Assembly: GCA_041659785.1 (NCBI GenBank)
Contig: JBAZXO010000001.1
Location: 177,649 to 241,648, forward strand
DNA: 64,000 nucleotides
Source of the DNA: Minisyncoccota bacterium
GTDB taxonomy: Bacteria > Patescibacteriota > Minisyncoccia > Phycocordibacterales > UBA9973
Direction: 5' to 3'
Positions 15,570-61,548 of the stretch are shown here, one piece after another. Position numbers and translations under genes: made by a program. The notes beneath the pieces were generated by a model, which ran no database searches, had not been told where the DNA came from, and saw only the letters and a program-made list of their open reading frames with translations. Numbering within the stretch: the first letter of the stretch is position 1; each line of letters opens with the position of its first letter.

Positions 15570-15571
15570 TG

Positions 15572-16510: not shown

Positions 16511-16581
16511 GTGCGGGATGCGGGAATCGAACCCGCGTTTAATCCTTGGGAAGGACTCGTCATACCACTAAACTAATCCCG
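16511..16581 (-). tRNA. tRNA-Gly (anticodon CCC)
   Basis: Acceptor GCGGGAT/ATCCCGC. Anticodon stem AGTCC/GGATT with loop TTCCCAA. T-arm GCGGG-TTCGATT-CCCGC. Confidence 0.75.
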
Positions 16582-16621
16582 CAACATGTATTTCTAAACT
16601 ATTTTTGTAGACTTAGAAATA

Positions 16622-16649
16622 CTCGCATACCACTAAACTAATCCCGCAA
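16622..16649 (-). repeat. near-perfect duplicate of the 5' 27 nt of tRNA-Gly (one indel), preceded by a 10-bp hairpin at 16586-16620
   Basis: GCGGGATTAGTTTAGTGGTATG-CGAG versus GCGGGATTAGTTTAGTGGTATGACGAG in the intact gene 40 nt away. Confidence 0.6.
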
Positions 16650-22670: not shown

Positions 22671-22701
22671 AGATATATTATAACATATTTTAAAAGACTA
22701 T

Positions 22702-28397: not shown

Positions 28398-30851
28398 TTA
28401 TAATGCTGGAGCTGGGGTGGATGTAGGAGTAGGTGCTGGGTCTGGGGCTGGAGAACCACCTCCCCCACTTACTGTGGGGACTCCTCCTCCGGAAGGAGGA
28501 GAGGAAGTCGTGCTTTCCCCTCCTTGTGGAGGAGGGGTGCCTCCGCCAGACGGAGGCGGGGTGGTAGTAGTTGTTGGTGCAGGTGTAGGCGTAGAAATTA
28601 ATGCTGTGGGTGGAGGTGTATTATTTTGCAAAAATGTTTGCAACTCTGTTTCAGTCACACAGGTATTGTTAATACATATTTTATCTTTTGCATGGAAACT
28701 TCCTGCAAACACATCCCCTATCCCATTTGTAACATCTGCGAGCCATGCACCCACTTTCGTATAAACATTATTAAAGAAGGCTGTCACGAAAGATTCAGTA
28801 GCGGGTGAAATGGTCTGCCCTGAACTTAGCTGAAGGGTGCCAGAAACTGCGTTTATGTTTAGATTAAGTTCTTGTAAAGCTTTAGTTAATATTGGAATAA
28901 CACCAGTAGTATTTAGAGATTTCATTCCTTCTACATCAGTCGCTACTAATTTAGGAACTACAGTTTCGACTTCTTGAGCGATAAAACCTAAATTTTTAAT
29001 AGAACCATCTACTTCATAATTCCAATTATAAACAACTGGTCTTAACTTCATTATTGTATCTAATCCATAATTAATATCTTCAATATTTTTCTTCATTCTT
29101 ACATCTGAAGTACAAGATATAGTTCCTCCAGTAGCTAAGGTACATCCTGTGGTATTTACATCGGTAAATTTTGCAATTATAGCTCCAGTTCCAGTGCCTT
29201 TTACCTCCAAAGGAATAGTCGTACCAGTTATTCCAATACCCACATTCCCCGTACTCCCTACTTGTAATCCTGTATATGCAATATTGTAAGCTTGAGAGGC
29301 GACAGTTTGAGAAGTTGAAACAGTGAGGCTTGTGGTTGAGCCAAATGCAGTAATTGTTCCTGCATTCGTACCATCCGCAAATACGAATTGCGAACCTACC
29401 ATTGCGGAAGTGAATGTCGTACCTACACCAGTGATTGTAGTCAAAGATTGAGATGCTGTGCCTGTGCTGTATTGAGTAGGGGTGACGGAGAGGATACCAG
29501 CAGGTACAAGTGTTCCAATGCCAAGATTTCCATTAATTGTTAATTTTTGTCCTGTAAGAGATCCTGCTGTGCCTGAAAAGGTTCCATAAAGGAGAGAGTA
29601 GTTTTTGTCATTCGCAAGCGTAGTCTGAAGCACATTATTTACATAAAAAGCGTTAGAATCAATTTCATTATAACCAGCTGAATATCCTAAGGCGACATTA
29701 TTGTTTCCTGTGGAGTTTGTATAAAGAGCATTAGCACCATTCGCGGTATTATAATAACCTATAGTGTTTAAATAGAGAGATTTATAACCATTTGCGGTAT
29801 TTTCCGATCCTGTGACAAAAATAGAATCATCCATGTTAATAGCCGTACCAGTATTAGAGTAAAGAGCATCTTTGCCATTCGCAGTGTTGCCATCTCCTAT
29901 AATATTTGAATAAAGAGCATTAGCACCATTCGCGGTATTACTATCGCCACTGAATCCTATAAAACAACCAGGTTCTAAAGGATTACAAGTACGAGTTATT
30001 GAAGCGTTAGAATAAAGAGAACTTAAACCAATAGCAGTGTTATTGCCACCAGAAGTATTCGAATATAAAGCTGAGTCACCAATTGCCACGTTGGAGGAAC
30101 CTGTAGTATTACTAAAAAGTGCTTCTGTTCCGCTTGCTAAATTGGCAGAACCAGTTGTATTAGAAAATAAAGCAGACTCACCTTGTGCAATATTATACAA
30201 TCCAGTCATTGTTAAATTTCCACCATCACCAAAAAAATAATTACTTAGGGAAGGATCAGCTGTAACAATATTAACACCCGCATATTTATAAGCAGAGCCT
30301 GAAGAAATATTTATATTCCCCACAACGTCAAGTTTTTGTGAAGGAGTAGTCGTCCCGATTCCAATATTTCCATTCCCTAATACTGAAAATCTTGTTCCCC
30401 CAACTAAAGTGTAAGCTACACCAGAGTTTGCAAGGGTAATAGCATCTGTGGTCATGGAAGTATCTGAAGCAATGGCAGAAATAGTTACAGTCTGACCTGT
30501 GGTTGCTGGTATTGTAATTGTGTCTCCAACTTTAAATGTATTGGTAAATTTTGTACCTACACCCGTGACTGTGGTACCGCCAGCATCATTTGAAACTGTT
30601 CCTATTCCTGTTGTTTCTTGAGCGACTTGAAATTTCGCAGTCGGTGCATTTGTACCGATACCATAAAAAAGTGTCGTTGGGTTTACATAAATTTGATCAA
30701 CCGCGCAGTTTGTATCTGTGGGACCACAAGTAGGATTCAATGTCTCTCCTGGTGCAAAGCGGGTACTAGGTGGAGAAGCAAAAACAAAAGTCGTGACCGT
30801 AAAAAAAGATGCAAATATAAATAACCCGATAAGAAAGAAATTTTTATGCAT
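28398..30851 (-). CDS. very large secreted tail-fibre-like protein with a peptidase-S74 intramolecular-chaperone domain and a Pro/Thr/Gly-rich C-terminus. Likely start is M27 (MHKNFF...) at 30851.
   Basis: Signal peptide. NTxxG/NTTGxxN repeats as in 22702-23979. SDVRMKKNIEDINYGLDTIMKLRPVVYNW...GFIAQEVETVVPKLV matches the S74 chaperone-of-endosialidase domain consensus (SDxRxKxNI ... GFIAQEV). Tail is TPPPSGGGTPPPQGG... Confidence 0.7.
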   Translation of the reverse strand: MHKNFFLIGLFIFASFFTVTTFVFASPPSTRFAPGETLNPTCGPTDTNCAVDQIYVNPTTLFYGIGTNAPTAKFQVAQETTGIGTVSNDAGGTTVTGVGTKFTNTFKVGDTITIPATTGQTVTISAIASDTSMTTDAITLANSGVAYTLVGGTRFSVLGNGNIGIGTTTPSQKLDVVGNINISSGSAYKYAGVNIVTADPSLSNYFFGDGGNLTMTGLYNIAQGESALFSNTTGSANLASGTEALFSNTTGSSNVAIGDSALYSNTSGGNNTAIGLSSLYSNASITRTCNPLEPGCFIGFSGDSNTANGANALYSNIIGDGNTANGKDALYSNTGTAINMDDSIFVTGSENTANGYKSLYLNTIGYYNTANGANALYTNSTGNNNVALGYSAGYNEIDSNAFYVNNVLQTTLANDKNYSLLYGTFSGTAGSLTGQKLTINGNLGIGTLVPAGILSVTPTQYSTGTASQSLTTITGVGTTFTSAMVGSQFVFADGTNAGTITAFGSTTSLTVSTSQTVASQAYNIAYTGLQVGSTGNVGIGITGTTIPLEVKGTGTGAIIAKFTDVNTTGCTLATGGTISCTSDVRMKKNIEDINYGLDTIMKLRPVVYNWNYEVDGSIKNLGFIAQEVETVVPKLVATDVEGMKSLNTTGVIPILTKALQELNLNINAVSGTLQLSSGQTISPATESFVTAFFNNVYTKVGAWLADVTNGIGDVFAGSFHAKDKICINNTCVTETELQTFLQNNTPPPTALISTPTPAPTTTTTPPPSGGGTPPPQGGESTTSSPPSGGGVPTVSGGGGSPAPDPAPTPTSTPAPAL

Positions 30852-30888
30852 TTTTTGAATTGTTAATTTTTTGAGATACATATATTTA

Positions 30889-32649
30889 TTATAACAAAAA
30901 ATTCTGATTAATGATCCCCCTCTTTGCATTAATTATACCAGAAGTATAAACAGTAGTATATGATTCATCTGGATTCTTGCGGTCTATGGTAATGTGATAT
31001 TCGCCTTTAGCAAGCAGACAATAATAATGACCATATTTATCAGCAACACGGTGGAATATCTCTTGCGGAAAACCTTTTCTAAACACGCGGACAATAGCAA
31101 AGGACATTGGTGTTTTGGTTTTAGCATCCATAATCGTCCCTAGAGTTTTAGGTTTTAAAAATAGCCGAATGATAAGAAGTAAAACGTAAATAGCAATAAT
31201 TATAAGATTCAACTTATTAGGATTAATAGCCAACAGAACAGTAGCAGAAATAAATCCAAGATAAAAAAGATTGGTTGAAATAATATTAATTATCCTTGCG
31301 TTTTTTGAATAAAATACCATGAGTTTCTTGTCACGTTTTGCAAACTCATTCCAGTCGAAGGCAAGGGGGTCCATTGGGATGTTTTTAGTGATGACTGTAT
31401 TTTCATTTAGAATAACTTCTCCACCGAAGTATAGATTGTCATAAAGTTCATCTCTAGTCTTTCCAGCAAGTTTTATGGAAGGTGCTTGATAGTTTGTTTT
31501 TCTTGTTGTAATTTCGTACGGACCTGGAGGTGCCAGAAAACCAAAACGTCCATCTAAGTCTGTTATGGCTGTGCCCACTTCTTTTCCTTCTTTATTTTTT
31601 AGAACTACATAGACTGGATCGAGTGGTTGCTTGGTAACACTATCATAAACCGTCCCCCAGGGTGCACGTTTTTTCCTTAAACCAAGTGATACCAGAAGAA
31701 CACTCCAAAGACGAAAAATTAAAAGGGGTACATCGGCAAAAGAAAATACATTCCCAGCAAGGGAAATTGCGACGACAGAACTTCCACCAAGAACACCGAC
31801 ACCGGAGACAGTTTTTGAAGCGATGGAACCAGCAGAAGTATTAACAAATCTAACAACATTTTTTCTTATTGTCCTAGTTGTTTTATCTACAAGAGTTACT
31901 CCTTTTTTAAAAGACTCAAAAATTGTTGTAGTAACTGAAGGTAATGATTGAGTGCCGCCACTGACTCCACCCCCAACATTTCCCGTAAATCCTGGGGTTG
32001 GTGTTGGACTCGGAATCGGAGTAGGTGTGGGATTAGGAGTCGGGGTTGGGGTTGGGGTAGGAGTTGGTGTTGGTGTAGGAGTTGGTGTCGGGGTCGGGGT
32101 TGGGGTTGGGGTTGGTGTAGGATGACCTCCCCCACCACTTTCGCTAGGACGTAAACTAAATGGTTTCCAATCAGTTTGCAAATAGAAATTATCAGTTCCG
32201 CATGAATTATCATCTAAACAATTAAAACTAATCCATCCTAAATTTTGACTCCATGCATAACCATGAAAAATTCCTAAATTATCAATAGTAACTCCTCCTC
32301 GTGTGGGCGCAAAATTAATCCAACCAGTATTTTGCCCCCAAGCATAACCAGCGAGATGACCTTCCGCATCATTAGTCACACCTCCATTCGTTGGTGCTAA
32401 ATTGATCCACCCAGCTAATTCACTCCATGCATTACCTGTAAGTCTAGAATCTGTAACATGTACATTTCCTAAAACAAGAGCAAAATTAATTTTCCCGACA
32501 TTACTATCTAAACCTTTTGCGTATTTATGAACACCATCTATCGTCCCATCAGTAGCGGAAGCATATGCAAAAAGTGGTACTGAAAACACAAAAAGACCTA
32601 AAAGTAACAAATTTTTTAGATATAAACTAAAAATTTTTTTATTTAACAT
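30889..32649 (-). CDS. secreted multi-domain protein: three GWINF/GYAW repeats, a (PT)n linker, transmembrane segments and two carboxypeptidase-regulatory-like (DxDGxF) domains
   Basis: Signal peptide. Repeats GWINLAPTNGGVT..GYAWGQNTGWINF x3. A PTPTPT... linker of about 35 aa. LKNKEGKEVGTAITDLDGRFGF motif. Confidence 0.55.
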   Translation of the reverse strand: MLNKKIFSLYLKNLLLLGLFVFSVPLFAYASATDGTIDGVHKYAKGLDSNVGKINFALVLGNVHVTDSRLTGNAWSELAGWINLAPTNGGVTNDAEGHLAGYAWGQNTGWINFAPTRGGVTIDNLGIFHGYAWSQNLGWISFNCLDDNSCGTDNFYLQTDWKPFSLRPSESGGGGHPTPTPTPTPTPTPTPTPTPTPTPTPTPTPNPTPTPIPSPTPTPGFTGNVGGGVSGGTQSLPSVTTTIFESFKKGVTLVDKTTRTIRKNVVRFVNTSAGSIASKTVSGVGVLGGSSVVAISLAGNVFSFADVPLLIFRLWSVLLVSLGLRKKRAPWGTVYDSVTKQPLDPVYVVLKNKEGKEVGTAITDLDGRFGFLAPPGPYEITTRKTNYQAPSIKLAGKTRDELYDNLYFGGEVILNENTVITKNIPMDPLAFDWNEFAKRDKKLMVFYSKNARIINIISTNLFYLGFISATVLLAINPNKLNLIIIAIYVLLLIIRLFLKPKTLGTIMDAKTKTPMSFAIVRVFRKGFPQEIFHRVADKYGHYYCLLAKGEYHITIDRKNPDESYTTVYTSGIINAKRGIINQNFLL

Positions 32650-38364: not shown

Positions 38365-39165
38365 ATGCTTAAATTTTACAAATATCACGGTGCCGGAAAT
38401 GACTTTATTTTCATAGATAATCGTGATAAAAAATTTGATATTAAAGATACGGAAAATATCAAATTGCTCTGCCATAGACGTTTTGGCATTGGGGCTGATG
38501 GACTAATCCTCTTAGAAAAAGAGAAAGGTTATGACTTTAGAATGGTCTTTATAAACAATGATGGCTCTATGGGGAGTATGTGCGGGAATGGCGGACGCTG
38601 TATAGTGCATTTTGCCAATAGTATTTTAAAAATTATTAAACCTGCCCGCCGTGGAGGGAGTCCTAAAAAAGTTAAATTCATAGCAGTGGATGGTGAGCAT
38701 GAGGCTGAAGTATTGAAAGATGGCCGAATAAAACTAAAAATGCAAGATGTAAAAGACATCGGAGAAAGAGATGGGCTAGCTTTCTTGTTTTCTGGAACCA
38801 CTCCACATCATATTCAATATGTGGTAAATGTAGAAAGTTTTCCAATTTGCGAAGAGGCTCGTAAAATTCGTGATAATGGTAAAAATCCTAAGGGTGTAAA
38901 TGTTAACTATGTAGAATATAAAAATGGAATCTTTTATGTACGCACTTATGAACGTGGTGTAGAGGATGAGACTCTCGCTTGTGGCACGGGAGCTACTTCT
39001 GTCGCCATCGCTTCACATCATCTAGGTATTTTAAAAGAAAATATTTGTCATATAAAAATGCCTGGCGGGGACCTCACTGTTGAATTCGAAAAAACAAAAG
39101 ACGGTTCTTATAAAAATGTCTGGCTCACTGGACCCGCTGTGTGCGTATTTCAGGGTGTGTTATAA
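38365..39165 (+). CDS. dapF: diaminopimelate epimerase
   Basis: HGAGNDFIFID N-terminal motif, with catalytic Cys in the GNGGRC and ACGTGATS contexts. Confidence 0.85.
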   Translation: MLKFYKYHGAGNDFIFIDNRDKKFDIKDTENIKLLCHRRFGIGADGLILLEKEKGYDFRMVFINNDGSMGSMCGNGGRCIVHFANSILKIIKPARRGGSPKKVKFIAVDGEHEAEVLKDGRIKLKMQDVKDIGERDGLAFLFSGTTPHHIQYVVNVESFPICEEARKIRDNGKNPKGVNVNYVEYKNGIFYVRTYERGVEDETLACGTGATSVAIASHHLGILKENICHIKMPGGDLTVEFEKTKDGSYKNVWLTGPAVCVFQGVL

Positions 39166-39172
39166 TCCCAGG

Positions 39173-40156
39173 ATGCTTCAAAAGAAAAATATATTCAACG
39201 GCGAAAAAGCTATATTTAATTACTTAACCCCAAGATCCACAGGCCCAACACCAATAATTGAGCTTCCTTCTCGCCTCAATCCATACCTTAAAGATGGCGT
39301 GCATATTTATATAAAATTAGTTCAGAGTTTACCACTCGCCAACATCAAATCTCTCCCCGCTTATTTTATGCTTGATGCGATTCCTAAAAAGGAATTGGGT
39401 AAAATAAAACACCTCGTAGAATATTCATCTGGCAATACTGTAATGTCTTTAACTATTTTGGCACGGCATTTCGGCATACCAAATATTCATGCAATTATCA
39501 CACCTGAAGTTCCTAAAAATAAACAAAATTTATTACGTCTTTTAGGCACTGACCTCATCATCTCGCACGGTCCCTCTTCACCAGATGTAAAAAGTAATAA
39601 GGGTGGTATCTGGGATGCAGCGCAAATGGGCAAAAAGCCAGGCTGGAAAAATTTACAACAATACATAAATCCAAACAGTCCAAAAGCATCAAATGAAATA
39701 ATTGGTAAAGAACTTTTCGAACAATTAGGTAAAAAAATAAATATCCTCTGTGCAGCTTTGGGTACAGGTGGGACGATTACCGGCAGTGCGACTTATTTAA
39801 AAAAGAAAATTCCAAATCTTTATGTGATAGCTACGTCGATAAAAAAAGGTAGCTCCATCCCTGGAGCTCGTGGAGAAGATGCAGTAAAAAAACTTTTCTT
39901 CCCCTGGGAAAAAGTAGTGGACTTAGAGTTTCCTGTAGCTACTCGGCCAGCATTTGAAATGAGCCTCAAGCTTATTCGTGAAGGAATCTTCGTCGGCCCT
40001 TCGACAGGTATGCAACTCGCAGGAATCTTAGAAACTTTGGCAAGATTAAAGAAAGAGAAAAAACTTAAGAAAAACACAAACGCTGTCTTAATAGCCTGCG
40101 ACACAATGTTCCCTTATATAGAGGATTATTTTACTGTGTTACCTGAACTTAAATAG
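39173..40156 (+). CDS. PLP-dependent enzyme of the tryptophan-synthase-beta / cysteine-synthase (PALP) fold
   Basis: TPIIELP...EYSSGNTVMSL...GTGGTITG pattern of fold-type II PLP enzymes. The start was moved to M32, directly after the dapF stop. Confidence 0.55.
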   Translation: MLQKKNIFNGEKAIFNYLTPRSTGPTPIIELPSRLNPYLKDGVHIYIKLVQSLPLANIKSLPAYFMLDAIPKKELGKIKHLVEYSSGNTVMSLTILARHFGIPNIHAIITPEVPKNKQNLLRLLGTDLIISHGPSSPDVKSNKGGIWDAAQMGKKPGWKNLQQYINPNSPKASNEIIGKELFEQLGKKINILCAALGTGGTITGSATYLKKKIPNLYVIATSIKKGSSIPGARGEDAVKKLFFPWEKVVDLEFPVATRPAFEMSLKLIREGIFVGPSTGMQLAGILETLARLKKEKKLKKNTNAVLIACDTMFPYIEDYFTVLPELK

Positions 40157-40816: not shown

Positions 40817-41854
40817 TTATTTTATCGTACTCCCTGTTTTAATAACATGATCTACTAGGGTGTATGTATACCCCATTTCGTTGTCATACCAGCCCATGAC
40901 TTTTACTAAATTTCCATCTACCACACGAGTCATTTTTAAGTCTGCGATAGAACCATATCTACTTCCCAGAATATCACTCGAGACGAGATCTTCATTCGTA
41001 ATAGAGAAAATGCCTTCCCATCTTTTATCTTTCGATGCTTTTTCCAAAATTTCATTTACTTCTTCTTTTGAAGTATTTTTCTTTGAAATAAAAGTGACGT
41101 CCACGATAGACCCAGCTGGCACAGGTACTCTCATCGATACACCATCAAAAAGTCCTTCTAATTTTGTAAACGCTTTTGTCACAGCGATAGCTGCTCCAGT
41201 AGAACTAGGCACAATGTTTTGTGCAGCTGCACGCCCTTCACGAAAATCTTTTTTATTTGGTCCATCGACAATTGCTTGAGAAGCAGTATATCCATGCACT
41301 GTGTTTAAAATTGCTTTCTCTATACCAAGAGCTTCATCTAGTATTGCGATAAGTGGTGAGGCAGCATTTGTGGTACAAGATGCATTGGAAGTAATATCAC
41401 AAGTACCGAATTTTTCTTCATTCACACCCATTAAAATTGTTTCCCCTTCAACTGTTCCGTCTCCATCTTTCGCGGGGGCAGAAATCACAACTTTTTTAGC
41501 GCCAGCATCCAAGTGAACTTTCGCTTTGTCATAAGAAGTGAAAAGTCCAGTGGACTCTACGACTACGTCAATGTCTAAATCTTTCCAAGGAAGAAGTGTT
41601 GGATCTTTTTGAGCAAGAACCTTAACTCTCTTTTCGCCAATAATAATATCACTTGTCCCGTTAGAAATTTCAGTTCTAATGGGATGATTCCACTGCCTAT
41701 AAACCGTGTCATATTTAAGTAAATAAGCCATATTCGCAATGTCACCTAGGTCATTCACAGCCACGACTTCAATTTCTGGACGTTCATATGCAATCTTTAA
41801 AAAAGCCCTACCTATTCTGCCGAAACCATTAATTCCTACTCGTATTTTTTTCAT
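40817..41854 (-). CDS. gap: glyceraldehyde-3-phosphate dehydrogenase, type I
   Basis: KIRVGINGFGRIGR NAD motif and catalytic SNASCTTN. The start was set at MKKIRVGINGFG. Confidence 0.9.
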   Translation of the reverse strand: MKKIRVGINGFGRIGRAFLKIAYERPEIEVVAVNDLGDIANMAYLLKYDTVYRQWNHPIRTEISNGTSDIIIGEKRVKVLAQKDPTLLPWKDLDIDVVVESTGLFTSYDKAKVHLDAGAKKVVISAPAKDGDGTVEGETILMGVNEEKFGTCDITSNASCTTNAASPLIAILDEALGIEKAILNTVHGYTASQAIVDGPNKKDFREGRAAAQNIVPSSTGAAIAVTKAFTKLEGLFDGVSMRVPVPAGSIVDVTFISKKNTSKEEVNEILEKASKDKRWEGIFSITNEDLVSSDILGSRYGSIADLKMTRVVDGNLVKVMGWYDNEMGYTYTLVDHVIKTGSTIK

Positions 41855-41915
41855 AATTTTTCGATAAAATTTTAATACCCTTATTATATCAAAAAAATAA
41901 ACAAAATGTGCTATT

Positions 41916-44900
41916 ATGCAAAGAACAAAAGATATGGAAAAAGACACCGAACCAAAATTTATACACCTCCATACCCACAGCCACTATTCACTATTGGATG
42001 GGCTTTCTAAGCTCGAAGATTTAGTTGATCTAGCCAAGAAATTCGAAATGCCGGCGATAGCCATCACTGATCATGGCAATATGTACGGAGCTATTGAATT
42101 TTATAAATTAGCAAAAAAAGCTGGCATCAAACCAATCATCGGAGTAGAGGCTTATGTAGCAAATCGTAGCAGGCTAAATAAAGATCCTGGTATAGACAAC
42201 AAAAGATATCACCTCACTTTGCTCGCAAAAAATATGCAAGGTTATAAAAATTTAATGAGGCTGGTAACAATTTCTAACATCGAAGGGTTTTATTACAAAC
42301 CTAGAATGGATAAAGAGATATTGAAAAAATACAGTGATGGCATTATCGCCCTCTCTGGATGTCTCGGCGGAGAATTATCTCGTGCGCTCTCTAATAAAAA
42401 TATTGAACTCGCTGAAGAAATAATAAAGGAACATCAAGAAATTTTCGGTAAAGAAAATTATTTTTTAGAAATAATGAAACACAGTACTGTACCAGGTGAC
42501 GAAGAAGTGCGAACAGAAATTATTAAACTTGGAAAGAAATTTAATATTCCACTCGTGGGTACGATCGACTCACATTATCCCTGTTCCGATGACAACAAAG
42601 CTCATGAGACATTGCTCGCAATACAAACAAACTCTGACATTAAGGATGAAAACAAATTTTCTTTTGGTGAAGATGATTATTCTTTTATAGACACAAAAAA
42701 GGCACAGGAAATTTTCAAAGATACACCAGAAGCTGTTACCAATACAGCGAAGATAGCAGACATGTGTAATGTAGAGCTAGAATTGGGCCGTTGGGTTTTC
42801 CCTGATTTTAAAATAGAAGATGGAAAGACTGCCGATGCAAAGTTGCGCGAGCTTGCTTATGCCGGTTTTGAAAGACTTGGTTTAAAAGAAACTCCAGAGA
42901 TAAAAGAACGAGTAGAATATGAACTAAAAATTATTTGCGATAAAGGATATTCTCCTTACTTCTTGGTGGTGGGAGATCTTCTGCGTTTTGCGAAAGAAAA
43001 CGGCATCCTAAGTGCCATTAGAGGCTCAGTCGCAGGATCCATGGTCACTTATCTTTTAGGAATTACGAATATAAACCCTATTGAGTACAAGCTCCCCTTC
43101 GAAAGATTCTTAAATCCATTTCGTCCTTCACCTCCCGATATCGATATGGATTACGCCGACAACAGACGCGATGAAATGATTGAATATGTAAAAAGTAAAT
43201 ACGGTGAAGATAAAGTCGCGCAGATCGGAACTTTCGGTACAATGATGGCCAAAGGTGCCGTGCGTGATGTGGCCCGAGCCCTTGCTTATCCTTACACTAT
43301 CGGAGACAGAATTTCGAAAATGATTCCAATGGGTTCACAAGGTATGCCCATGACCATAGACCATGCTATGGAAATAGTTCCAGAGTTAAAAGATGCTTAT
43401 GAAAAAGAAAAAGACACAAGGGAGATAATAGACTTAGCAAAAAAGCTCGAAGGCTGTGTTAGACACATCTCCGTGCATGCCGCTGGAGTGGTCATTGCTC
43501 CTCGCCCAATCTATGAATACATGCCAACCCAGCTCGACCCTAAGGGCGGAAAAATAATTACTCAGTACGATATGTATAGTGCTGAAGATGCAGGACTACT
43601 AAAATTCGACTTCTTGGGAATTAGAAACTTAGCAATCCTCTCTGATGCGATAACTTTAGTTAAGAAATTTTATAATACAGATATAGATATCGAACGTATA
43701 CCGCTTGATGATAAAAAGACTTTCGAACTACTCGCAAATGGTCAGACTGAAGGTCTGTTTCAACTAAATGGTAGTGGTATGACCAGATACTTAAAGGAGC
43801 TCAAACCTACTTCAATCCATGACATAAACGCGATGGTGGCCCTTTATCGTCCGGGCCCGATGGAATCAATACCAGAATATATCAAGCGCAAGCACAACCC
43901 AAGACTCGTAAAATATTTAGATCCAAGAATGAAAAAGTTCCTTGGGGAATCATACGGGCTTATAGTCTACCAAGACGACCTGCTCTTTTGTGCGATAGAC
44001 CTAGCCGGCTACAACTGGGAAGAAGCGGATAAATTCCGTAAGGCTGTCGGTAAAAAAATTCCTAAAGAAATGGCTGCGCAGAGAGAGAAATTTACGGAAG
44101 GTATAATAACAAACGGTCAGACTCCAGAATTTGCTGAAAAACTATGGAAACTCTTCGAGCCGTTTCAGGCTTATGGTTTTAATAAAGCACATGCAGCCTC
44201 ATATGGAAGAGTGGCGTACCACACAGCCTATATGAAAGCCCACTACCCTGTGGAATATATGACAGCAATCCTCACTGCTGAGTCCGGTGATGTAGAAAAA
44301 ATTTCTGAAATTATCGAAGAGTGTAAGAAAATGAATATTCTGATTCTTCCACCAAACATCAATGAAAGTTACGGAGGCTTTACTTGCTTACCTCATGAAA
44401 AAGATACAAAAATAAGTAATGAAAACAAAAGTGAGAAAATTAGATTTGGTTTCTATACTATTAAAAATCTTGGCACCGATATTTCCGACGCAATCATCGC
44501 GGAGAGAAAGTTAAATGGTAAATTTACCTCTATTACAAATTTCTTAGATAGAATTAAGCATAAAAATTTAAACAAGAAATCAATTGAAGCGTTAATTAAG
44601 TCTGGATGTATGGATGACTGGGAAGATCGAGGAATACTCCTAGCCAATGAAGAAGCAATGCTCGAATACAATCATGAAAATTCTAAACAAAATGAAAACC
44701 AAGTTTCTCTTTTTGGTGGCACTTCCTTAACCAAAGCCCCAGAATTCAAATTACAACCTGGGAAAGCTGCAAATCAAGCAGAAAAGTTGCTTTGGGAAAA
44801 GGAACTTTTGGGACTTTATATTTCTGGACATCCTCTCGACCGCTTACGTGAGAAACTAGAAAAACGAGATATAAACATCAAAAAGATAAAAGAAGAACTC

Positions 44901-49675: not shown

Positions 49676-49687
49676 ATTTTTATTATA

Positions 49688-51619
49688 TCACTTTTTTATA
49701 TCACGAGTAAGGGCTCGGAGAAGTATGTCGAGCTCTATCGTAGCCACTCCGACGACAGTATCAGCCCCGCCATAATATATATAAAGTATCCCTTCTCTTT
49801 CAGTCATACCACATGGAAAAACAACATTATTTACTACTCCAACTTTTTCATATGGTTCCGCTGGTTCAAATATAGGATCAGAAAGACGAGCTAGCACTAT
49901 CGCCGGGTCATTTAAGTCAAGCAAGGCAGCTCCTAGACGATAAGTATGATGATTCTTCGAAATACCATGATAAAGAAGGAGCCATCCGTATTTCGTCTTT
50001 AAGGGCGGAGCAGAAATTCCAACTTTTTCACTATCCCACTTATTTATTCTTGGCCCCATAATCCGAATACATTTTCGGATAGTTTCTTTTGTAAAATCTA
50101 GAGATTTTAAATAATCTCCACAAATTTCACTGCCAACTCGATGCAAAATAAAATATTTTCCTTTTGTTTTCTCAGATAAAATACAAGTATCTTTATCGTC
50201 AAATCCTGCTGGAGTAATTAGAACTGGTTTTTCCCATTGCCATTTTTTTGTTAGAAAATTTTTCTCCGTGATAGATGTAACTGCAACTCGCGGTGGACCT
50301 ATGCCATCAAATGCTGTATAACACATATAAATATTCTTTCCTACTTTTGTTAAACGTGGGTCTTCGCAACCTGAATTCCCTCCAGCAATCTTTTTCAATT
50401 CAAAACTTTCTCTGGGAATATATACAGGAGAATCTAATCTTTCATTGATAAAAAAACCATCTTTAGAAGAGGCATAACCTATAGTGGAAGTATTATCTCC
50501 TGAAAGCGCTCGATATAGTATGTGTGTTGTATTTCGTATCCTTAAGGCTGCTGGGTTGAATGTCGCTTGTGCTTCCCATGGATGATTTTTATCTGGCACA
50601 ATAATGGGATTATTTAAAGAACGTAAGAAATGCCATCTCGTACTTGTCTCTGGGCGCATAGTAGAAACAAGGTCGGTTATGTTCACATGAGCGAGGCATG
50701 AAGTCGTATCAGCCGCTCCATAATAAATGGAAAGTACATCTTTTTCTAAAATTGCACCGGAAGGAAAAACGATATTGGGTACATGTCCTATAAGTTCATA
50801 TGGCTCATTGGGTACTAAAATAGGACCACGTGTATGCCCTAAAATCTTTAATGGATTATTGAAATCAAGAAGTACTGCTTCAATACCAAAAATACGGTCA
50901 TGGTCTCCCCCTCCCGCAAAATAATGTTGAATATGAGAATACAGTATAAGCCAACCATGGGTAGTCTTTACAGGTGGGGCTCCAACTTCAGTATGGTCAA
51001 AGGGTGACCTTTTAAAATCTACAACATGTTCATCAATATTTGCATACCATTTTTCCCAAAACTTTTGATTCCATAATTCTTCTATTTTATTTACTTGAGC
51101 TATCGCAATCTTGGAAGGAGGCATATCTGTATTTACTGTTACTATTACTGTAATCTTTCCATTAATACGTTCAGGAAAAAGCGTCATAGCTTTCGCGTTG
51201 AAAGGCGTCACCAAGTGTCGCTCATGAACCTTTTTCAAATCTTTTGAAACTGCTACAGCAACTTTTATCCCACTAGCCTCAAATGGATATTTAGAAAGCG
51301 CTGTATAAAATATATAGTACTCACCTTCAAAGAAAGTAATGCGAGGATCCTCACAGCCAAACTTTTCCCACTCTTCCTTCGGAGTAATAAACGGCATACG
51401 TTCTTCGAAATGCCTGCCGTCTTTTGATTTTCCTAAACCTATTATGGACATTTGGCTAGGTGTGATAAATTTATCTTCCGCTCCGATAGCACGATATACT
51501 CCATAAAGAGTCTTCCCTTTTTTCACAACACTCATATTGAAAGTCGCAAAAGACTCCCAATAGTTATCTCTATAGGGGTCAAGGACTGGGTTATGGTGGG
51601 ACCGTTTTGCTACATACAT
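49688..51619 (-). CDS. glycoside hydrolase family 130 protein with two tandem GH130 domains (beta-mannoside phosphorylase-like)
   Basis: Two repeats of the pattern NP(V/I)(L/I)...W(E)..A.FN....(G..YL.YRA)....IG.A.S.DG..F.....P...P......GCEDPR(I/L)T. Confidence 0.7.
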   Translation of the reverse strand: MYVAKRSHHNPVLDPYRDNYWESFATFNMSVVKKGKTLYGVYRAIGAEDKFITPSQMSIIGLGKSKDGRHFEERMPFITPKEEWEKFGCEDPRITFFEGEYYIFYTALSKYPFEASGIKVAVAVSKDLKKVHERHLVTPFNAKAMTLFPERINGKITVIVTVNTDMPPSKIAIAQVNKIEELWNQKFWEKWYANIDEHVVDFKRSPFDHTEVGAPPVKTTHGWLILYSHIQHYFAGGGDHDRIFGIEAVLLDFNNPLKILGHTRGPILVPNEPYELIGHVPNIVFPSGAILEKDVLSIYYGAADTTSCLAHVNITDLVSTMRPETSTRWHFLRSLNNPIIVPDKNHPWEAQATFNPAALRIRNTTHILYRALSGDNTSTIGYASSKDGFFINERLDSPVYIPRESFELKKIAGGNSGCEDPRLTKVGKNIYMCYTAFDGIGPPRVAVTSITEKNFLTKKWQWEKPVLITPAGFDDKDTCILSEKTKGKYFILHRVGSEICGDYLKSLDFTKETIRKCIRIMGPRINKWDSEKVGISAPPLKTKYGWLLLYHGISKNHHTYRLGAALLDLNDPAIVLARLSDPIFEPAEPYEKVGVVNNVVFPCGMTEREGILYIYYGGADTVVGVATIELDILLRALTRDIKK

Positions 51620-57144: not shown

Positions 57145-57843
57145 TTAGTTTAAAAGAAATCTGAGTGTAGAAACTACCCGGATCTTCTTGTATTCAGGAG
57201 AACCTGGATCTTTATCTGTTATATCAAACACGCCTTGATTTCCGCGTGACACCCCACCCAAGTGAGATCCGGACTCTTTTGCGAATTGTGTTGCTGCATC
57301 TTTTGCGTTTTTAATAGCTTCAGCAAGCATCTCTGGTTTAACACTATTGATATCCGAAAATTCAAAAGCGATAGAATTTTGATTTAGGGTAACCCCTTCT
57401 TTTACCAACATCAAAGTATCCTTGGAGGCAGACCTAACTGCATCGACTTTCTTTGTATAGACAGACAATTGAGTGTTTGCATTGTATCTAAACAAAGAAT
57501 CTTTGTATGTATCCTGATAAATATTTACTGGAGCTACATTTATCTCTGACGTCTCAAATCCTTTTGCTAAAAGAAATTTATTTATTGCCGTAGTATTTTT
57601 TTCAATATCAGCATAAAGTGAATCAATATTGTTTGACTTAACATCAAAATTGATTGACCATATCGCCACATCAGCTTTGACTATTTTTTCTGATAGACCT
57701 TTCACCTCTACATAAGACTGTTGCTTAGAAAAATTCTGTGCCGCAGCAAAAGAAAGAAATGAAAAAACTAATAATACTGCTCCAATAATCCACATACTGC
57801 TATTTTTTATATTTTCCATAAATTTATTATAACACAAATACAC
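57145..57843 (-). CDS. SIMPL/BP26-family (DUF541) secreted protein
   Basis: Signal anchor. YVEVKGLSEKIVKADVAIWSINF pattern typical of SIMPL-domain proteins. Confidence 0.45.
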   Translation of the reverse strand: MYLCYNKFMENIKNSSMWIIGAVLLVFSFLSFAAAQNFSKQQSYVEVKGLSEKIVKADVAIWSINFDVKSNNIDSLYADIEKNTTAINKFLLAKGFETSEINVAPVNIYQDTYKDSLFRYNANTQLSVYTKKVDAVRSASKDTLMLVKEGVTLNQNSIAFEFSDINSVKPEMLAEAIKNAKDAATQFAKESGSHLGGVSRGNQGVFDITDKDPGSPEYKKIRVVSTLRFLLN

Positions 57844-57864: not shown

Positions 57865-59034
57865 TTAAACAAGGCGTTTAAAAAGATAAATAAATACAGT
57901 CATTGCAGTAAATGCTACCAAGGCAGCGAAAACAAAAGCATAAATGGGATTTAAGACCCACAAAATTCCTGCTATCACTGAAGCGAGAAGATATATTAAG
58001 CCTGTAGTAAAGTTATATGCGCCGATGGCTGTAGCTCTCCTGTCCTTCTCTATGTCAGAAATAAATGCTTTACTCTGAGCTTCGTCAATACTATAAAAGA
58101 TTCCAAATAATATGAACAAAATAATTACCTCCCATTTTTCTTTTGCAAAAATAAAACCTAAAGACATAATGATATAAGTTATATATCCTAAAATAATTAT
58201 GTATCTTCGTCCGATAAAGTCACCGAGCTTGCCTATAGGTATAGATATAAAGACAAAAGAGATATTGAAAAGCGCGTAAAGCAAGACCACATCTTTGATA
58301 GCAAAGCCGACAGCATATGCTCTAAGAAGTAAAAATCCAAAACTAAAATAAGCTAAAGAAAAAATTCCCGCAGGAATAAGAAAAAGTCTAAAACTAGGAC
58401 TCAATGTCCCCCAGGCCTTAAAAATATTTTCTCTTTCATGAGGAATACCTGGACGATCCTTCATTAAAGCGAGAACGAGCACAGCGAGTAATGCTCCGAT
58501 GATTGCTATAACAAAGATAATATGAAAAGTACTCCTGGTAGTACCCAAATAAAGAAGTAAGAAATATGCAACAAGAGGCCCTAAGATAGCACCTGCTTTA
58601 TCCATCGCCTTATGTACTCCAAATGTGTATCCCCTAGTAGATTCTTGTGCTACAGCAGAAAGCCATGCATCTCTAGGTGGACCACGAAAACTTTTTCCTA
58701 CACGTTCAATAATTCTAAATGATGCTAGAGATGCCACAGAGCTCGATACGAGAAGAATCACTTTCGCAACAGTTGAAAAACCATAACCAAAAATAGCTAA
58801 TTGTTTCCTCTTACCCGTTTTATCTGAAAGCCAACCAGCAAAATAATCTAGAGAAGACGCGGAAAAATCTGAAAAACCTTCTACTAAACCTAGAAGTGAT
58901 GCAGGCGCACCAACGATTACTGTAAAGAATATAGAAAAAACTGAAAAAATAGCCTCCGAGCTAATGTCAGTCAAAAAACTCACAATACCCAATTTGAAAA
59001 CATCAGGGTGAATATTTAAAAATCTTTTTTCCAT
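57865..59034 (-). CDS. MFS transporter
   Basis: Twelve predicted transmembrane helices and a GxLaDrxGrR-like loop (LSDKTGKRKQLA). Confidence 0.75.
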   Translation of the reverse strand: MEKRFLNIHPDVFKLGIVSFLTDISSEAIFSVFSIFFTVIVGAPASLLGLVEGFSDFSASSLDYFAGWLSDKTGKRKQLAIFGYGFSTVAKVILLVSSSVASLASFRIIERVGKSFRGPPRDAWLSAVAQESTRGYTFGVHKAMDKAGAILGPLVAYFLLLYLGTTRSTFHIIFVIAIIGALLAVLVLALMKDRPGIPHERENIFKAWGTLSPSFRLFLIPAGIFSLAYFSFGFLLLRAYAVGFAIKDVVLLYALFNISFVFISIPIGKLGDFIGRRYIIILGYITYIIMSLGFIFAKEKWEVIILFILFGIFYSIDEAQSKAFISDIEKDRRATAIGAYNFTTGLIYLLASVIAGILWVLNPIYAFVFAALVAFTAMTVFIYLFKRLV

Positions 59035-59056
59035 TACAAGCTAAATATACTAGTTA

Positions 59057-59188
59057 TTAAGCAAACTTTGTTTTGTTTCTAGCAGCTTTTTTAGTAAGCA
59101 TGATACTCTTGACTGCGAGTCTTTTTGCAGTCTTGTGTGAGCGTCTTGATTTCTTTTTGGGACTAAGTGTTGTTCCTCTTTTTGCCAT
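59057..59188 (-). CDS. small basic protein, 43 aa, possibly ribosomal (bL35-like?)
   Basis: MAKRGTTLSPKKKSRRSHKTAKRLAVKSIMLTKKAARNKTKFA. The ...ILTKKA.R.K segment resembles bL35, but the protein is much shorter. Confidence 0.25.
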   Translation of the reverse strand: MAKRGTTLSPKKKSRRSHKTAKRLAVKSIMLTKKAARNKTKFA

Positions 59189-59272
59189 ATAATTCTTGTT
59201 ATTTATTATTAATAAGTTATTTTCTATTATACTTTATAATGATAAATAATTCAATAAAATTAATTCTTATTT

Positions 59273-59557
59273 TTATTCCTTAGTTTTTAGCCATCTTTGT
59301 AATTCAATTACGGCATTTAATTTTTCTTTATTTTCTTCTACCCTTTTTAAATCTTCTAGCCATCCTTCAACCATAGGTTTCATATCTTTTCCATCTGATT
59401 TACCATTTTCCATTATTACTTCTAAATGTTTTTTAGCTAGATCTAGCTTACCCATATCTAACAAATGCTTTGTAACGCTAGTCGCAGAAAGCCATGCCGC
59501 ATTTCCAATTTTATGTTTAAGGTTTTCGTGAAGATTTTTGTGAACAAGTTTATCCAT
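59273..59557 (-). CDS. hypothetical all-helical protein, 94 aa, co-directional with and downstream of the nuclease gene
   Basis: ORF only. No motif recognised. Confidence 0.35.
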   Translation of the reverse strand: MDKLVHKNLHENLKHKIGNAAWLSATSVTKHLLDMGKLDLAKKHLEVIMENGKSDGKDMKPMVEGWLEDLKRVEENKEKLNAVIELQRWLKTKE

Positions 59558-59615
59558 ATAGATTATAAAAAATTAAAAATATTAATAAAACCATTATAGC
59601 ATGTTTATTATTATA

Positions 59616-60368
59616 CTACTTTTCTTCTGCCTCACTAACTGCTTTCCTATAGGCGCACCAATCACAATTTTCTCCTGTTTCTGGAATTTTATCACTATCT
59701 AAACATTCTTTTATTTTAAATAAAGTCTTTTCCACCCATGAGTCATCACCCTCATACGCAATTAGATTTACATCAAAATCAATCCTTTTATCGAAGGCTT
59801 CTCGGTCCATTATACCTGTACAATAAACAAAATAGCCTGTATTAGAAACCTTTAAACCATTATGCCTGACTAGCCACTGATATACCTCCATTTGGCGTTT
59901 ATAGCCATCCTGCCACTCTTTATCGAGCTCTTTTACTGCTTCATCCTTTGCAGTAGCTTTGTAGTCTACGACCATATATTGACCCTTACCATCAATCCAT
60001 AAATCATCGATGGCTCCAGTGACGAGTAAACCTGTGGGTTCATGCAAATATTTAACCCCACCGAAATTTCTTCTCCATTCATCAAGTTCTTCATGAGGAG
60101 CTGGTTTCGCATCTATGCCATATTCTTTCTGCAATGGGTGCTGTTGATTCTTCGCGCGATGAATATCAAATTCTTGTTTAAGCAAATGATCGACTGCGCT
60201 GTTGATAGAAAACGGAAATCCTGGCACTCTTTTTATGCCCAATTTATTATCTATATAAAAACACCTTGGGCATTCCAAAAATAAATCAATCTTGGAACGG
60301 CTAAGTTTCCAATTTCCTCCTCCGTAATTCCAAGCTCTCCCCCTGTTTGGTTTGTAATATTCAGACAT
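59616..60368 (-). CDS. PD-(D/E)xK nuclease, Cas4/RecB-like, with a four-Cys cluster
   Basis: D...VVDYKA (D-x(n)-D/E-x-K) core. Cys pair CPRC near the N-terminus and CDWC at the C-terminus, the Cas4/AddB-type arrangement. Confidence 0.6.
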   Translation of the reverse strand: MSEYYKPNRGRAWNYGGGNWKLSRSKIDLFLECPRCFYIDNKLGIKRVPGFPFSINSAVDHLLKQEFDIHRAKNQQHPLQKEYGIDAKPAPHEELDEWRRNFGGVKYLHEPTGLLVTGAIDDLWIDGKGQYMVVDYKATAKDEAVKELDKEWQDGYKRQMEVYQWLVRHNGLKVSNTGYFVYCTGIMDREAFDKRIDFDVNLIAYEGDDSWVEKTLFKIKECLDSDKIPETGENCDWCAYRKAVSEAEEK

Positions 60369-60403
60369 AAACTATTTTACCATTTTTTTATAATTCTCTA
60401 TAG

Positions 60404-60436
60404 CAAAAAAAAGGTCATCTTACGATGACCTTTTTT
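60404..60436. terminator. orphan bidirectional terminator-like hairpin in a divergent intergenic region
   Basis: A9-GGTCATC-ttac-GATGACC-T6. There is no upstream gene on either strand to terminate. Confidence 0.5.
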
Positions 60437-60446
60437 CCTCGTGGAC

Positions 60447-60457
60447 ATTATATCACA
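60447..60457 (-). promoter_or_regulatory. extended -10 element TGaTATAAT on the minus strand, upstream of the hairpin and the nuclease gene
   Basis: Minus-strand read TGTGATATAAT. No good -35 is needed for extended -10 promoters. Confidence 0.4.
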
Positions 60458-60633
60458 AAGTTGGAACCAATGGGAAAGCTGGGTTTTCGGAGCATACGAC
60501 ACCCTTATCGGAAATTATCGGTCTGAAAATAGCCTTGTTTGTTAAGTATAAATAGATATCTAGTATCACAAGAATAGAATTAAATAGCTTATATTGTGGA
60601 CAACTTTATTAAATAATATGATACAATTATTCC

Positions 60634-61119
60634 ATGAATAAATTAGCAGTAAGTGTGCCTGCTAGCTCAATAGCAGAATACTTTATTCAAAAATCTAATC
60701 TTTCATCTCCGCGAAGGGTTATAACTAATAAGAAAATTCAAAAACTTGTCTATTATGCTCAAGCATGGTCTTTGGCTATAAACAAACGTCCTCTTTTTGA
60801 AGAAAAGATTGAAGCGTGGGTGCATGGACCTGCAATAAAAAGTGTCTATGATAGATATAAAAAATTTGGTTTTAGTGTAATAAAAAAAGAACCTGATTTA
60901 GCTTTAATCAAGGTTATATCTGAGAATGATAAAAATATTTTAGAACAAGTATGGGATGTTTATGGTAAATACGATTCTTCTTACTTAGAAATGCTTACTC
61001 ATTCCGAACTCCCTTGGCAAAAAGCGAGAGAAGGACTTACTGTTGATGAAAGTTCTGAAAATGAAATAAGTATTGCTTCTATGCAAGAGTTTTACTCATC
61101 TAAACTTAAAAAAAATTAA
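60634..61119 (+). CDS. Panacea-domain (DUF4065, SocA/GepA-like) protein, putative antitoxin
   Basis: KLVYYAQAWSLAINKRPLFEEKIEAWVHGPAIKSVYDRYKKFG matches the DUF4065 consensus as I recall it (KLqKLlYyaqgw.La..g.pLf.e.feAW.hGPV.p.vY..yk.yG). Confidence 0.65.
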   Translation: MNKLAVSVPASSIAEYFIQKSNLSSPRRVITNKKIQKLVYYAQAWSLAINKRPLFEEKIEAWVHGPAIKSVYDRYKKFGFSVIKKEPDLALIKVISENDKNILEQVWDVYGKYDSSYLEMLTHSELPWQKAREGLTVDESSENEISIASMQEFYSSKLKKN

Positions 61120-61128
61120 TTTAAGTTT

Positions 61129-61548
61129 ATGTCTATTCCAGAAGAAGCAAGTAAGTTGGCAGTAAGTGACTCTTTAATTCCAGAAAATATCACCCAGCTT
61201 CCACAACGAGAAGATGACCCTGAGTCTTCGCCATTTATGATTTCATTGGCTAGGTATAACGAAAAAGAGTGTGGTATAGACAACATAGATAAAAAAAGAG
61301 CTGTAAAAGCCTTAAAACTAATACGAGAAATAGGAGTTAATACGTATTCCGAATCAGATTTAAGGAGTTTGAAATTAAAACCTGTTTATCCAAATGGAGA
61401 TTATAAAAAATTATACAAAGGATTACCCTTAGACATTGAGATAAAGGAATTATTTATTGACTCAGACAAAGGAAGGATTTTCTTTTTTACTCTTCAGAAA
61501 ATTTTTTATCTTATATCAATAACAGATTCTCATTACAATACCCATTGA
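61129..61548 (+). CDS. uncharacterised 139-aa protein 9 nt downstream of the Panacea gene, a candidate cognate toxin
   Basis: Tight operonic spacing. Helix-then-beta pattern with a C-terminal ...SHYNTH, reminiscent of RelE/YoeB-fold toxins (speculative). Confidence 0.4.
   Translation: MSIPEEASKLAVSDSLIPENITQLPQREDDPESSPFMISLARYNEKECGIDNIDKKRAVKALKLIREIGVNTYSESDLRSLKLKPVYPNGDYKKLYKGLPLDIEIKELFIDSDKGRIFFFTLQKIFYLISITDSHYNTH

Follow-up and report, generated by a model that had tools for sequence, protein, structure and literature searches.

What does a Cas4-like nuclease do in a bacterium when no clustered regularly interspaced short palindromic repeat (CRISPR) array accompanies it, and what is a terminator-like hairpin doing just in front of its gene? 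Both questions are raised by a 250-amino-acid (aa) open reading frame (ORF) in a 64,000-nucleotide (nt) stretch of a Minisyncoccota bacterium genome (contig JBAZXO010000001.1, positions 177,649 to 241,648), hereafter called the window. A sequence-only reading had described it as a solo Cas4-like enzyme, possibly of phage or defense origin, in an operon whose promoter runs into a promoter-proximal attenuator or RNA-stability element. Profile searches, motifs, and neighborhood scans showed that the predicted product is a CRISPR-independent RecB/Cas4-type PD-(D/E)XK nuclease of a Patescibacteria-wide family. We regard as probable a picture in which a backbone gene, an ordinary terminator, and a leaderless promoter are combined. 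The gene in question is the following.

59616 to 60368, minus strand: solo Cas4-like/RecB-type PD-(D/E)XK nuclease gene, 250 aa (Pfam, PADLOC, motifs, AlphaFold2 fold)

The ORF contains the stretches GAIDDLW and VVDYKAT and two Cys pairs, CPRC (residues 33-36) and CDWC (residues 235-238). The Pfam profile PDDEXK_1 (PF12705) matched it with an E value of 9.3e-14 and 52.4 bits, well past the gathering threshold of 22, and several PADLOC Cas4 models matched at E values from 1e-10 to 1e-4. The RecB motifs I, II, III, and QhxxY, represented by E66, D121/D122, D135-Y-K137, and Q159-M-E-V-Y163, were invariant in alignments with 80 and with 33 relatives. These results confirmed that the 250-aa product is a PD-(D/E)XK protein, as had been read from the sequence. 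The family model of CRISPR-associated Cas4 was not reached: NCBIfam TIGR00372 (cas4) gave 33.3 bits against a curated cutoff of 65, and no match to PF01930 was found at E <= 1 in the Pfam scan.

In the same alignments, six Cys residues were conserved throughout the family (C33, C36, C183, C222, C235, and C238), and no conserved Cys was present C-terminal of C238. Canonical Cas4 and AddB proteins carry one N-terminal Cys and a C-terminal CX2CX5C (PMC4176176). In the nuclease, C33-x2-C36 and C235-x2-C238 are accompanied by C183 and C222; thus, the third C-terminal Cys is missing and a second N-terminal Cys is present, which makes the family a CxxC...CxxC variant. The CPRC and CDWC sequences reported earlier were indeed present, but the number of four Cys had to be revised, and the positions are not those of Cas4/AddB-type enzymes.

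An AlphaFold2 model of the nuclease was obtained with a predicted local distance difference test (pLDDT) score of 77.7, a moderate confidence due to the shallow input alignment, which consisted of database proteins only. The closest solved folds were Cas4, Cas4-Cas1 fusions, AdnAB, RecE, MGME1, Pcal_0546, AddB, Exo5, and lambda exonuclease, with template modeling (TM) scores of 0.35-0.5. Sequence searches of the Protein Data Bank, with the single sequence and with a profile, gave only spurious cellulase matches.

Compared with known systems, the nuclease shares with CRISPR Cas4 (TIGR00372/PF01930; structures 4ic1 of SSO0001, 4r5q of Pcal_0546, and 7mi4 and 8d3l of Cas4-Cas1-Cas2) the RecB fold, motifs I-III, QhxxY, an N-terminal "CPR" Cys, and a C-terminal CxxC, and these structures are among its best matches. 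It differs from them in its score below the family cutoff, the lack of the CX2CX5C triad, the extra N-terminal Cys together with C183 and C222, an additional length of ~40 residues with a conserved N-terminal extension, and a location that is never beside cas1, cas2, or an array. The iron-staple domains of AddB, AdnA-AdnB, and RecB, in which a metal centre links the N- and C-terminal parts, are of the same fold class; in 7 of 135 relatives, the gene directly upstream of the nuclease codes for a UvrD-like superfamily 1 helicase. Unlike AddAB and AdnAB, however, the nuclease is not fused to a helicase, and no helicase gene adjoins it in the window. UvrD-Cas4-like fusions and the Argonaute-associated Cas4 family enzyme ACE1 are accessory nucleases of type III restriction-modification (R-M), Dcm-Vsr, and prokaryotic Argonaute systems (PMC5704561, PMC12094033). 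As in those systems, a Cas4-family nuclease stands here beside varied non-CRISPR defense genes, and an ancillary function in DNA-end processing is plausible. By contrast, there is neither a fusion nor a fixed partner, the conservation is far above that expected of a defense accessory, and the ACE1 structures matched the nuclease model weakly (E 0.025).

The stand-alone character of the enzyme was borne out by the surroundings of its relatives. No CRISPR-like array was found within ~3 kb of the gene in any of 174 sequences (the window and 173 related loci), and no cas family appeared in neighbor scans of the related loci. The window itself contained no CRISPR array and no cas gene among the ORFs scanned at 49-64 kb; the ORFs at 1-49 kb were not scanned against protein families. 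The earlier statement that array and cas genes are absent thus held within this range.

The family proved to be large. The nuclease matched more than 8000 database clusters, the best 120 of which were 76-100% identical, with hosts among Paceibacterota, Andersen-, Staskawicz-, Falkow-, Magasanik-, and Blackburnbacteria and WWE3 and with source names of PD-(D/E)XK or Cas4. A 100% identical protein is named "PD-(D/E)XK nuclease family protein" in a metagenome-assembled genome (MAG) of Candidatus Paceibacterota, and several homologues carry the JGI label COG1468 Cas4. Scans of genomes and metagenomes yielded 160 nuclease loci from many Patescibacteria lineages, and in a search of 1.84 billion cluster representatives, 278 clusters matched with E <= 1e-30 and 1015 with E <= 1e-10. 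Distant members were fused to NUDIX, HD_4, TIR+GYF, or DUF2779 domains; examples are P0124, P0138, and P0186, with NUDIX (a cluster of 46 members), HD_4, or TIR+GYF. HD and NUDIX genes also occur as neighbors of the solo nuclease.

Conservation of the protein was compared with that of its synonymous sites. Where the proteins were 75-90% identical, their genes agreed at only 0.30-0.35 of the 4-fold degenerate sites (random expectation, 0.25), and the G+C content of the gene ranged from 32 to 55% across hosts, adapted to each of them. In the same genome pairs, the nuclease was 80% identical and TspO, a protein encoded near it in many loci, 44%. A protein identity of ~80% despite saturated synonymous sites suggests an ancient, strongly constrained gene, and the family would accordingly be a resident backbone gene, passed on vertically while purifying selection acted very strongly on it. 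The saturated 4-fold sites led us to reject recent horizontal transfer as the source of the 80% identity, and the same saturation, together with the host-adapted G+C content, speaks against the phage origin proposed for the gene. This result agrees with Hudaiberdiev et al. (2017; PMC5704561), who found solo-Cas4 over-represented in candidate phyla radiation (CPR) bacteria and solo-cas4 genes in general mostly vertical, and who left the function in CPR unknown, "defence or repair".

Furthermore, the genes on either side of the nuclease were compared in 153 distinct loci, 135 of which could be scored upstream and 138 downstream. A same-strand gene was located directly upstream in 125 of the 135 (~93%), ending within 15 nt of the nuclease ATG in 86, and these upstream genes belonged to 91 different families. 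Recurrent among them were DNA methylases (25 loci), AbiP2-type reverse transcriptases (RTs; 10 loci, of which five members were scanned and matched PADLOC AbiP2 with a best E of 6.6e-179), a 305-aa RT paired with a helix-turn-helix (HTH) protein (9 loci), the UvrD-like helicase mentioned above, ResIII with RE_endonuc, GmrSD, HerA/DUF87, AAA_15 with OLD-TOPRIM (OLD/Gabija-like), and RhuM-Fic. By hand count in the Pfam table, defense-type domains were present on at least ~30 of 74 immediate upstream genes. The upstream genes matched 484 PADLOC families and the downstream genes 70, the downstream side being much less defense-like. On that side, TspO recurred in 20 loci, and in one subclade the order of nuclease, 100-aa gene, and TspO was kept while the upstream gene varied among HerA-like, OLD-like, RT, and UvrD genes. 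No conserved nucleotide motif, att-like motifs included, was detected outside the nuclease ORF in 117 loci.

Two of the sets that recur directly upstream of the nuclease contain RT genes: one consists of a 130-aa protein, a 120-aa HTH protein, and the 305-aa RT, and the other of an AbiP2-like RT of 500 aa. These sets and the clade-specific downstream trio were noted in L031, L116, L139, and other relatives and in L011, L012, L018, and L153.

These results indicate that the flanks of the nuclease gene vary from genome to genome. A stable nuclease beside an ever-changing, defense-rich upstream flank points to a backbone gene forming the downstream border of a hot spot in which defense genes would be continually exchanged. 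The defense context that had been suspected for the gene was thus found at the level of the family neighborhood. In the window, the cargo upstream of the nuclease is a divergent SocA/Panacea module.

It could instead be that the nuclease moves together with the neighboring defense cassettes, as a dedicated effector or a mobility gene. Tiny gaps to many different defense genes, the TIR+GYF, NUDIX, and HD fusions of distant homologues, the serine recombinase and T5orf172 genes near some loci, and two paralogues in one MAG (L046 and L070) would all suit such a role. However, the nuclease remains ~80% identical whatever its partner, whereas the partners are 30-69% identical; its synonymous sites are saturated and its G+C content follows the host; the upstream gene changes without separating the nuclease, the 100-aa gene, and TspO; terminal repeats and conserved flanking DNA were absent; and the window lacks any upstream partner. 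We consider a traveling effector unlikely.

Conversely, the nuclease might be a pure housekeeping enzyme of repair, recombination, or nucleotide salvage, for instance a pared-down substitute for AddB/RecB or an enzyme that breaks down imported DNA, without any part in immunity and with an adjacent site that defense genes happen to use as a hot spot. The extreme purifying selection and vertical inheritance fit this explanation, the fold neighbors AdnAB, AddB, RecE, Exo5, and MGME1 are repair nucleases, a UvrD-like helicase is directly upstream in seven loci, the fusions to NUDIX and HD domains suggest a link to nucleotide metabolism, and PMC5704561 leaves repair and defense both open. The defense domains on the immediate upstream neighbors and the TIR fusion in the wider family argue against it. 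A housekeeping role of this kind is a real possibility, though not the one that we expect.

Between these, we lean slightly toward a role in accessory defense or repair over that of a dedicated effector. In a bolder form, the nuclease would be a shared, RecBCD-like hub that finishes or processes cut invader DNA for many unrelated defense systems in CRISPR-poor, reduced genomes. This form starts from an amino-acid identity of ~80% across class-level lineages, which would place the nuclease among the most constrained proteins of Patescibacteria, and from its fixed position as the first backbone gene downstream of the hot spot. Its clients could be R-M systems, AbiP2/UG reverse transcriptases, OLD/Gabija-like ATPases, and HerA, and the CxxC...CxxC layout could be a variant iron staple. 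We offer the hub only tentatively and regard it as rather doubtful.

The second question, that of the hairpin, depends on how genes are expressed in this organism. The window is A+T-rich, and the extended -10 class TGNTATAAT was enriched in it, with 17 sites against 5.0 +/- 2.2 in shuffled sequences; 10 of the 17 stand 6-8 nt before the ATG of a long ORF. A -10 hexamer was located 4-9 nt before the start codon in 27 of 54 window genes (14% at random positions) and an extended TGn box in 14 of 54 (1% at random), while a Shine-Dalgarno (SD)-like motif was found in only 1 of 54. A few window genes had leaders of 21-35 nt behind extended -10 boxes. Among relatives of the nuclease gene, a -10 element was found 4-9 nt before the start in 55 of 149 cases, against a background of 11%. 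The position of the boxes and the near lack of SD motifs suggest that the organism expresses many genes as leaderless mRNAs, and the genome appears to run largely on them. In the literature searched, nothing directly relevant to leaderless translation in Patescibacteria was found.

Boxes of the leaderless type include those at 7943-7951(-), 22677-22685(-), 49682-49690(-), 57826-57834(-), and 60619-60627(+). The mechanically called starts of five ORFs, 57145-57843(-), 1991-2464(-), 28398-30929(-), 39080-40156(+), and 40817-41947(-), probably lie too far upstream. For the first four, internal ATGs that have an extended -10 box at a distance of 6-8 nt are the likelier starts; they lie at 57819, 2455, about 30881, and about 39173. 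For ORF 40817-41947, the box lies at 41883-41891 with no ATG within 12 nt, and an internal ATG follows ~28 nt downstream.

The region upstream of the nuclease contains four features.

60374 to 60382, minus strand: extended -10 box TGGTAAAAT, 5 nt before the nuclease ATG at 60368, the presumed real promoter (read from the sequence)
60405 to 60436, both strands: hairpin, a probable bidirectional intrinsic terminator, made of A8, GGTCATC, TTAC, GATGACC, and T6 (folding)
60447 to 60455, minus strand: orphan box of the extended -10 type, TGATATAAT; a -35-like TTCCCA lies at 60471-60476, at a spacing of 18 nt (motif scan)
60437 to 60585, no strand assigned: lineage-specific noncoding stretch, possibly the relic of a lost gene (G+C content, folding, similarity searches)

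The sequence-only reading had placed an extended -10 box at TGATATAAT and the hairpin about 10 nt after it, and both the box and the spacing were found to be correct. It had missed the box TGGTAAAAT, which sits between the hairpin and the nuclease ATG, that is, downstream of the hairpin. As a TGnTAnnnT box within 4-9 nt of the ATG and without an SD motif, TGGTAAAAT has the form of a leaderless promoter, and the nuclease is probably transcribed from it as a leaderless mRNA.

The hairpin GGTCATC-TTAC-GATGACC is real as described (GGTCATC at 60413-60419, GATGACC at 60424-60430, and T6 at 60431-60436), except that the flank given as A9 is an A8 (60405-60412). Counting the A/T extensions, the stem comes to 13 bp (7 core pairs, 4 of them G-C) and about -19 kcal/mol, and the folding z-scores of the hairpin were -5.5 on the minus strand and -5.9 on the plus strand, values matched by 0 of 200 shuffles. 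The stem is followed by U8 on the minus strand and by U6 on the plus strand. In its G+C core stem, its A-run and T-run flanks, its high stability, and its predicted ability to work on both strands, it resembles Rho-independent bidirectional terminators. Perfect hairpins with A/T flanks are few in the window, and apart from this one the clearest adjoin tRNA genes.

Neither the hairpin nor the TGATATAAT box was found in any of 170 related loci, identical contigs aside. In L170 and L171, whose nucleases are 91% identical to that of the window, a same-strand upstream gene ends 12 nt before the nuclease ATG, and in L081-L086, L172, and L173 (89% identity), it ends 6-12 nt before the ATG. This gene is an AAA_13 ATPase in L081-L083, itself located after an HsdM/S-type methylase, and YgjP-like in L085. 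Where relatives do begin a new transcription unit at the nuclease gene, as in L014, L036, L047, and L062, the layout is shared: a terminator hairpin, ~20-40 nt, an extended -10 box, 6 nt, and the ATG. The absence of the hairpin in relatives, the leaderless promoter downstream of it, and the layout of such relatives together point to an ordinary bidirectional terminator or insulator, not a conserved attenuator. The hairpin was possibly inherited from a lost upstream gene.

The attenuator proposed earlier requires that TGATATAAT be the promoter of the nuclease and that the hairpin set how much transcript reaches the ORF 72 nt downstream. That TGATATAAT is a perfect extended -10 of an enriched, functional class, that a -35-like element lies at 18 nt from it, that a strong terminator hairpin follows after 10 nt, and that a few window genes do have 21-35-nt leaders behind such boxes would favor this model. 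However, the second extended -10 lies 5 nt from the ATG, near the 6-8-nt spacing of 10 other leaderless genes; a 72-nt leader without SD is atypical here; and in relatives with 89-91% identity the place of the hairpin region is taken by a gene that runs up to the ATG. No excess folding was detected on either strand of the 104 nt upstream of the hairpin (60437-60540; z-scores, +0.6 and +1.3), so that no antiterminator fold was apparent and a riboswitch or structured small RNA could be dropped. In Rfam, only tRNAs passed the gathering threshold in the whole window, and in a search at E <= 10 on 59000-61000 the best sub-threshold match was to BTnc231, a Bacteroides small RNA (24 vs 80 bits, E 0.035; full-length, mostly over the terminator). 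We judge an attenuator or RNA-stability element improbable.

Closely related is the possibility that the hairpin ends a minus-strand noncoding RNA of its own, ~40 nt long if started from TGATATAAT or ~135 nt if started near 60538. The clearest other perfect A/T-flanked hairpins of the window do come after tRNA genes, and the weak BTnc231 match and the raised G+C content point the same way. Against this, the body of such an RNA shows no excess structure, the match is below its gathering score, no homologue was found in 88 related loci or in viral contigs (0 matches in an exact scan for the hairpin), and the longer form lacks a convincing promoter. Such a small RNA likewise seems quite improbable.

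The stretch at 60437-60585 has a G+C content of 0.40, which is coding-like, while neighboring intergenic DNA has 0.14-0.22. One explanation is that this stretch, the orphan promoter, and the hairpin are the remains of a same-strand upstream gene that was lost or replaced when the SocA/Panacea module arrived, the hairpin being the terminator of the lost gene and now without a dedicated role. Consistent with this, ~93% of relatives have a same-strand gene directly upstream, and a 38-aa frame terminates 17 nt before the hairpin. In addition, contig ends of independent assemblies fall here: at 60585 for three contigs of the same strain from other samples, identical to the window, and at 60398 for L169, the relative with 96% identity. 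Such breaks suggest strain-level structural variation just upstream of the nuclease. Yet, without a function, neither the perfect 13-bp stem nor the perfect extended -10 would be expected to stay intact, and no similarity of the spacer to the upstream genes of relatives was detected by blastn or tblastx (80 and then 88 loci), except to the identical contigs. Four small ORFs of 33-38 aa in the spacer have neither a leaderless-type promoter nor a homologue. A relic of this sort is possible, but we hold it to be doubtful.

From these results, the following mechanism can be proposed for the backbone gene with its terminator and leaderless promoter. The nuclease would bind a metal or Fe-S centre through its N-terminal and C-terminal CxxC motifs, stapling the ends of the fold together, and would act as a metal-dependent exonuclease on DNA ends or single-stranded DNA. 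It would thereby trim or destroy DNA ends, either of a broken chromosome or of invader DNA cut by the neighboring restriction and abortive-infection genes. Its leaderless mRNA would start from TGGTAAAAT, in what is predicted to be the normal expression mode of this organism. The hairpin, 22 nt upstream of TGGTAAAAT, may close transcripts arriving from the variable upstream segment, including those from the orphan TGATATAAT, and may keep 5'-extended, SD-less transcripts off the leaderless start. It could also stop antisense transcription toward the SocA promoter. The hairpin would in this way be an insulator, placed where the island meets the backbone, and would not act as an attenuator.

Several points weigh against this picture. 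The link to defense may be purely positional, as core genes often flank defense hot spots. The hairpin differs from typical Rho-independent terminators in that it lies between divergent genes in a region where no annotated gene ends; the only candidate units that could end at it are the orphan promoter 10 nt upstream, with a predicted transcript of ~40 nt that ends in the hairpin, and the uncharacterized 150-nt stretch. No start codon is present 3-12 nt 3' of TGATATAAT, and, since the class of this box is clearly functional in this genome, it probably fires. The structure model of the nuclease is moderately confident (pLDDT and TM scores given above), and it also had very weak fold matches to enzymes of RNA 5' ends, DXO1 and the cap-binding domain of eIF3d (match probability 0.2-0.7). 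Together with the NUDIX and HD fusions, these matches make an RNA or nucleotide substrate possible.

As for what is new, solo Cas4-like nucleases of CPR bacteria were already described in 2017, and the hairpin is best read as an intrinsic terminator of the usual kind. The CPR pfam12705 proteins of PMC5704561 are likewise stand-alone RecB-type nucleases with PD-(D/E)XK motifs and conserved Cys in small, CRISPR-less genomes, and that paper is without a neighborhood or conservation analysis for this clade. The present analysis adds a protein identity of ~80% where synonymous sites are saturated, an arrangement of the Cys as 2+2, and a location on the edge of a defense-gene hot spot. Its extraordinary constraint and its fixed position beside fast-exchanged defense genes make the family a practical landmark for new defense systems in Patescibacteria and a candidate shared accessory nuclease. 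Its Cys layout departs from the canonical Cas4/AddB iron staple, a variation of the metal site that can be tested. The leaderless mode (extended -10, 6-8 nt before the ATG, no SD) has consequences for how genes are called and promoters annotated in such genomes. These side results on constraint, Cys layout, hot-spot anchor, and leaderless promoters may outweigh the original claim in usefulness.

The remaining features lie on the two sides of the nuclease.

59273 to 59557, minus strand: 94-aa ORF without a family match, not a conserved partner of the nuclease (Pfam, PADLOC, and PHROG scans)
59593 to 59601, minus strand: extended -10 box TGCTATAAT, in the 58-nt gap between the nuclease and the 94-aa ORF, 35 nt before the ATG of the latter (motif scan)
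60634 to 61548, plus strand: gene for a SocA/Panacea antitoxin-like protein (161 aa) with a 139-aa partner, divergent, variable defense-type cargo (Pfam SocA_Panacea, E 5.9e-21)

The 94-aa ORF had been taken as the second gene of an operon. It does follow on the same strand, but, as it has its own TGCTATAAT box, an operon with the nuclease is not established, and the partnership did not hold up: a homologue stands beside the nuclease in one relative only, L169 (positions 977-1126), with 58% identity over 50 aa against 96% for the nuclease. The L169 and window nuclease genes are 81% identical at 4-fold sites, and DNA homology stops 9 nt past the nuclease stop codon; the flank either was replaced or is evolving very fast.

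The SocA gene has a leaderless promoter, TGATACAAT, at 60619-60627, 6 nt before its ATG. The 139-aa ORF begins 9 nt after the SocA gene, has no family match, and is probably the toxin partner. Both were absent beside the nuclease of the relatives, and tblastn of the 94-aa, 43-aa, SocA, 139-aa, and major facilitator superfamily proteins gave no match flanking the nuclease in 80 genome loci. The 43-aa ORF, at 59057-59188(-), is extremely basic (MAKRGTTLSPKKKSRRSHKTAKRL...), matches no family, and is called as a gene in another assembly (L088); a promoter-like TTGAAT-17-TATAAT stands at 59226-59254 for it.

Elsewhere in the window, two tRNA genes have partial duplicates nearby. The 5' part of tRNA-Gly has an exact 24-nt duplicate 65 nt away (16561-16584 and 16626-16649), and the start of tRNA-Val an 83% duplicate 73 nt away (10072-10095 and 10145-10168); they may be integration (att) scars or tRNA fragments. 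A perfect 22-bp hairpin at 15525-15572, between the end of the gene at 15052-15519(+) and tRNA-Phe(-), is the strongest bidirectional terminator-like structure in the window, and A/T-flanked hairpins follow tRNA-Val (10241-10261) and tRNA-Arg (16085-16114). Just 3' of tRNA-Glu, two tandem TGGTATAAT boxes at 7267-7275 and 7287-7295 (-) have only frames of 17 and 8 aa behind them and could drive an unannotated small RNA or peptide. Finally, a 12-nt tandem repeat, GGnGTnGGnGTn, occupies 31994-32127 inside the ORF at 30889-32649(-) and is Gly-Val-rich when read on the plus strand.

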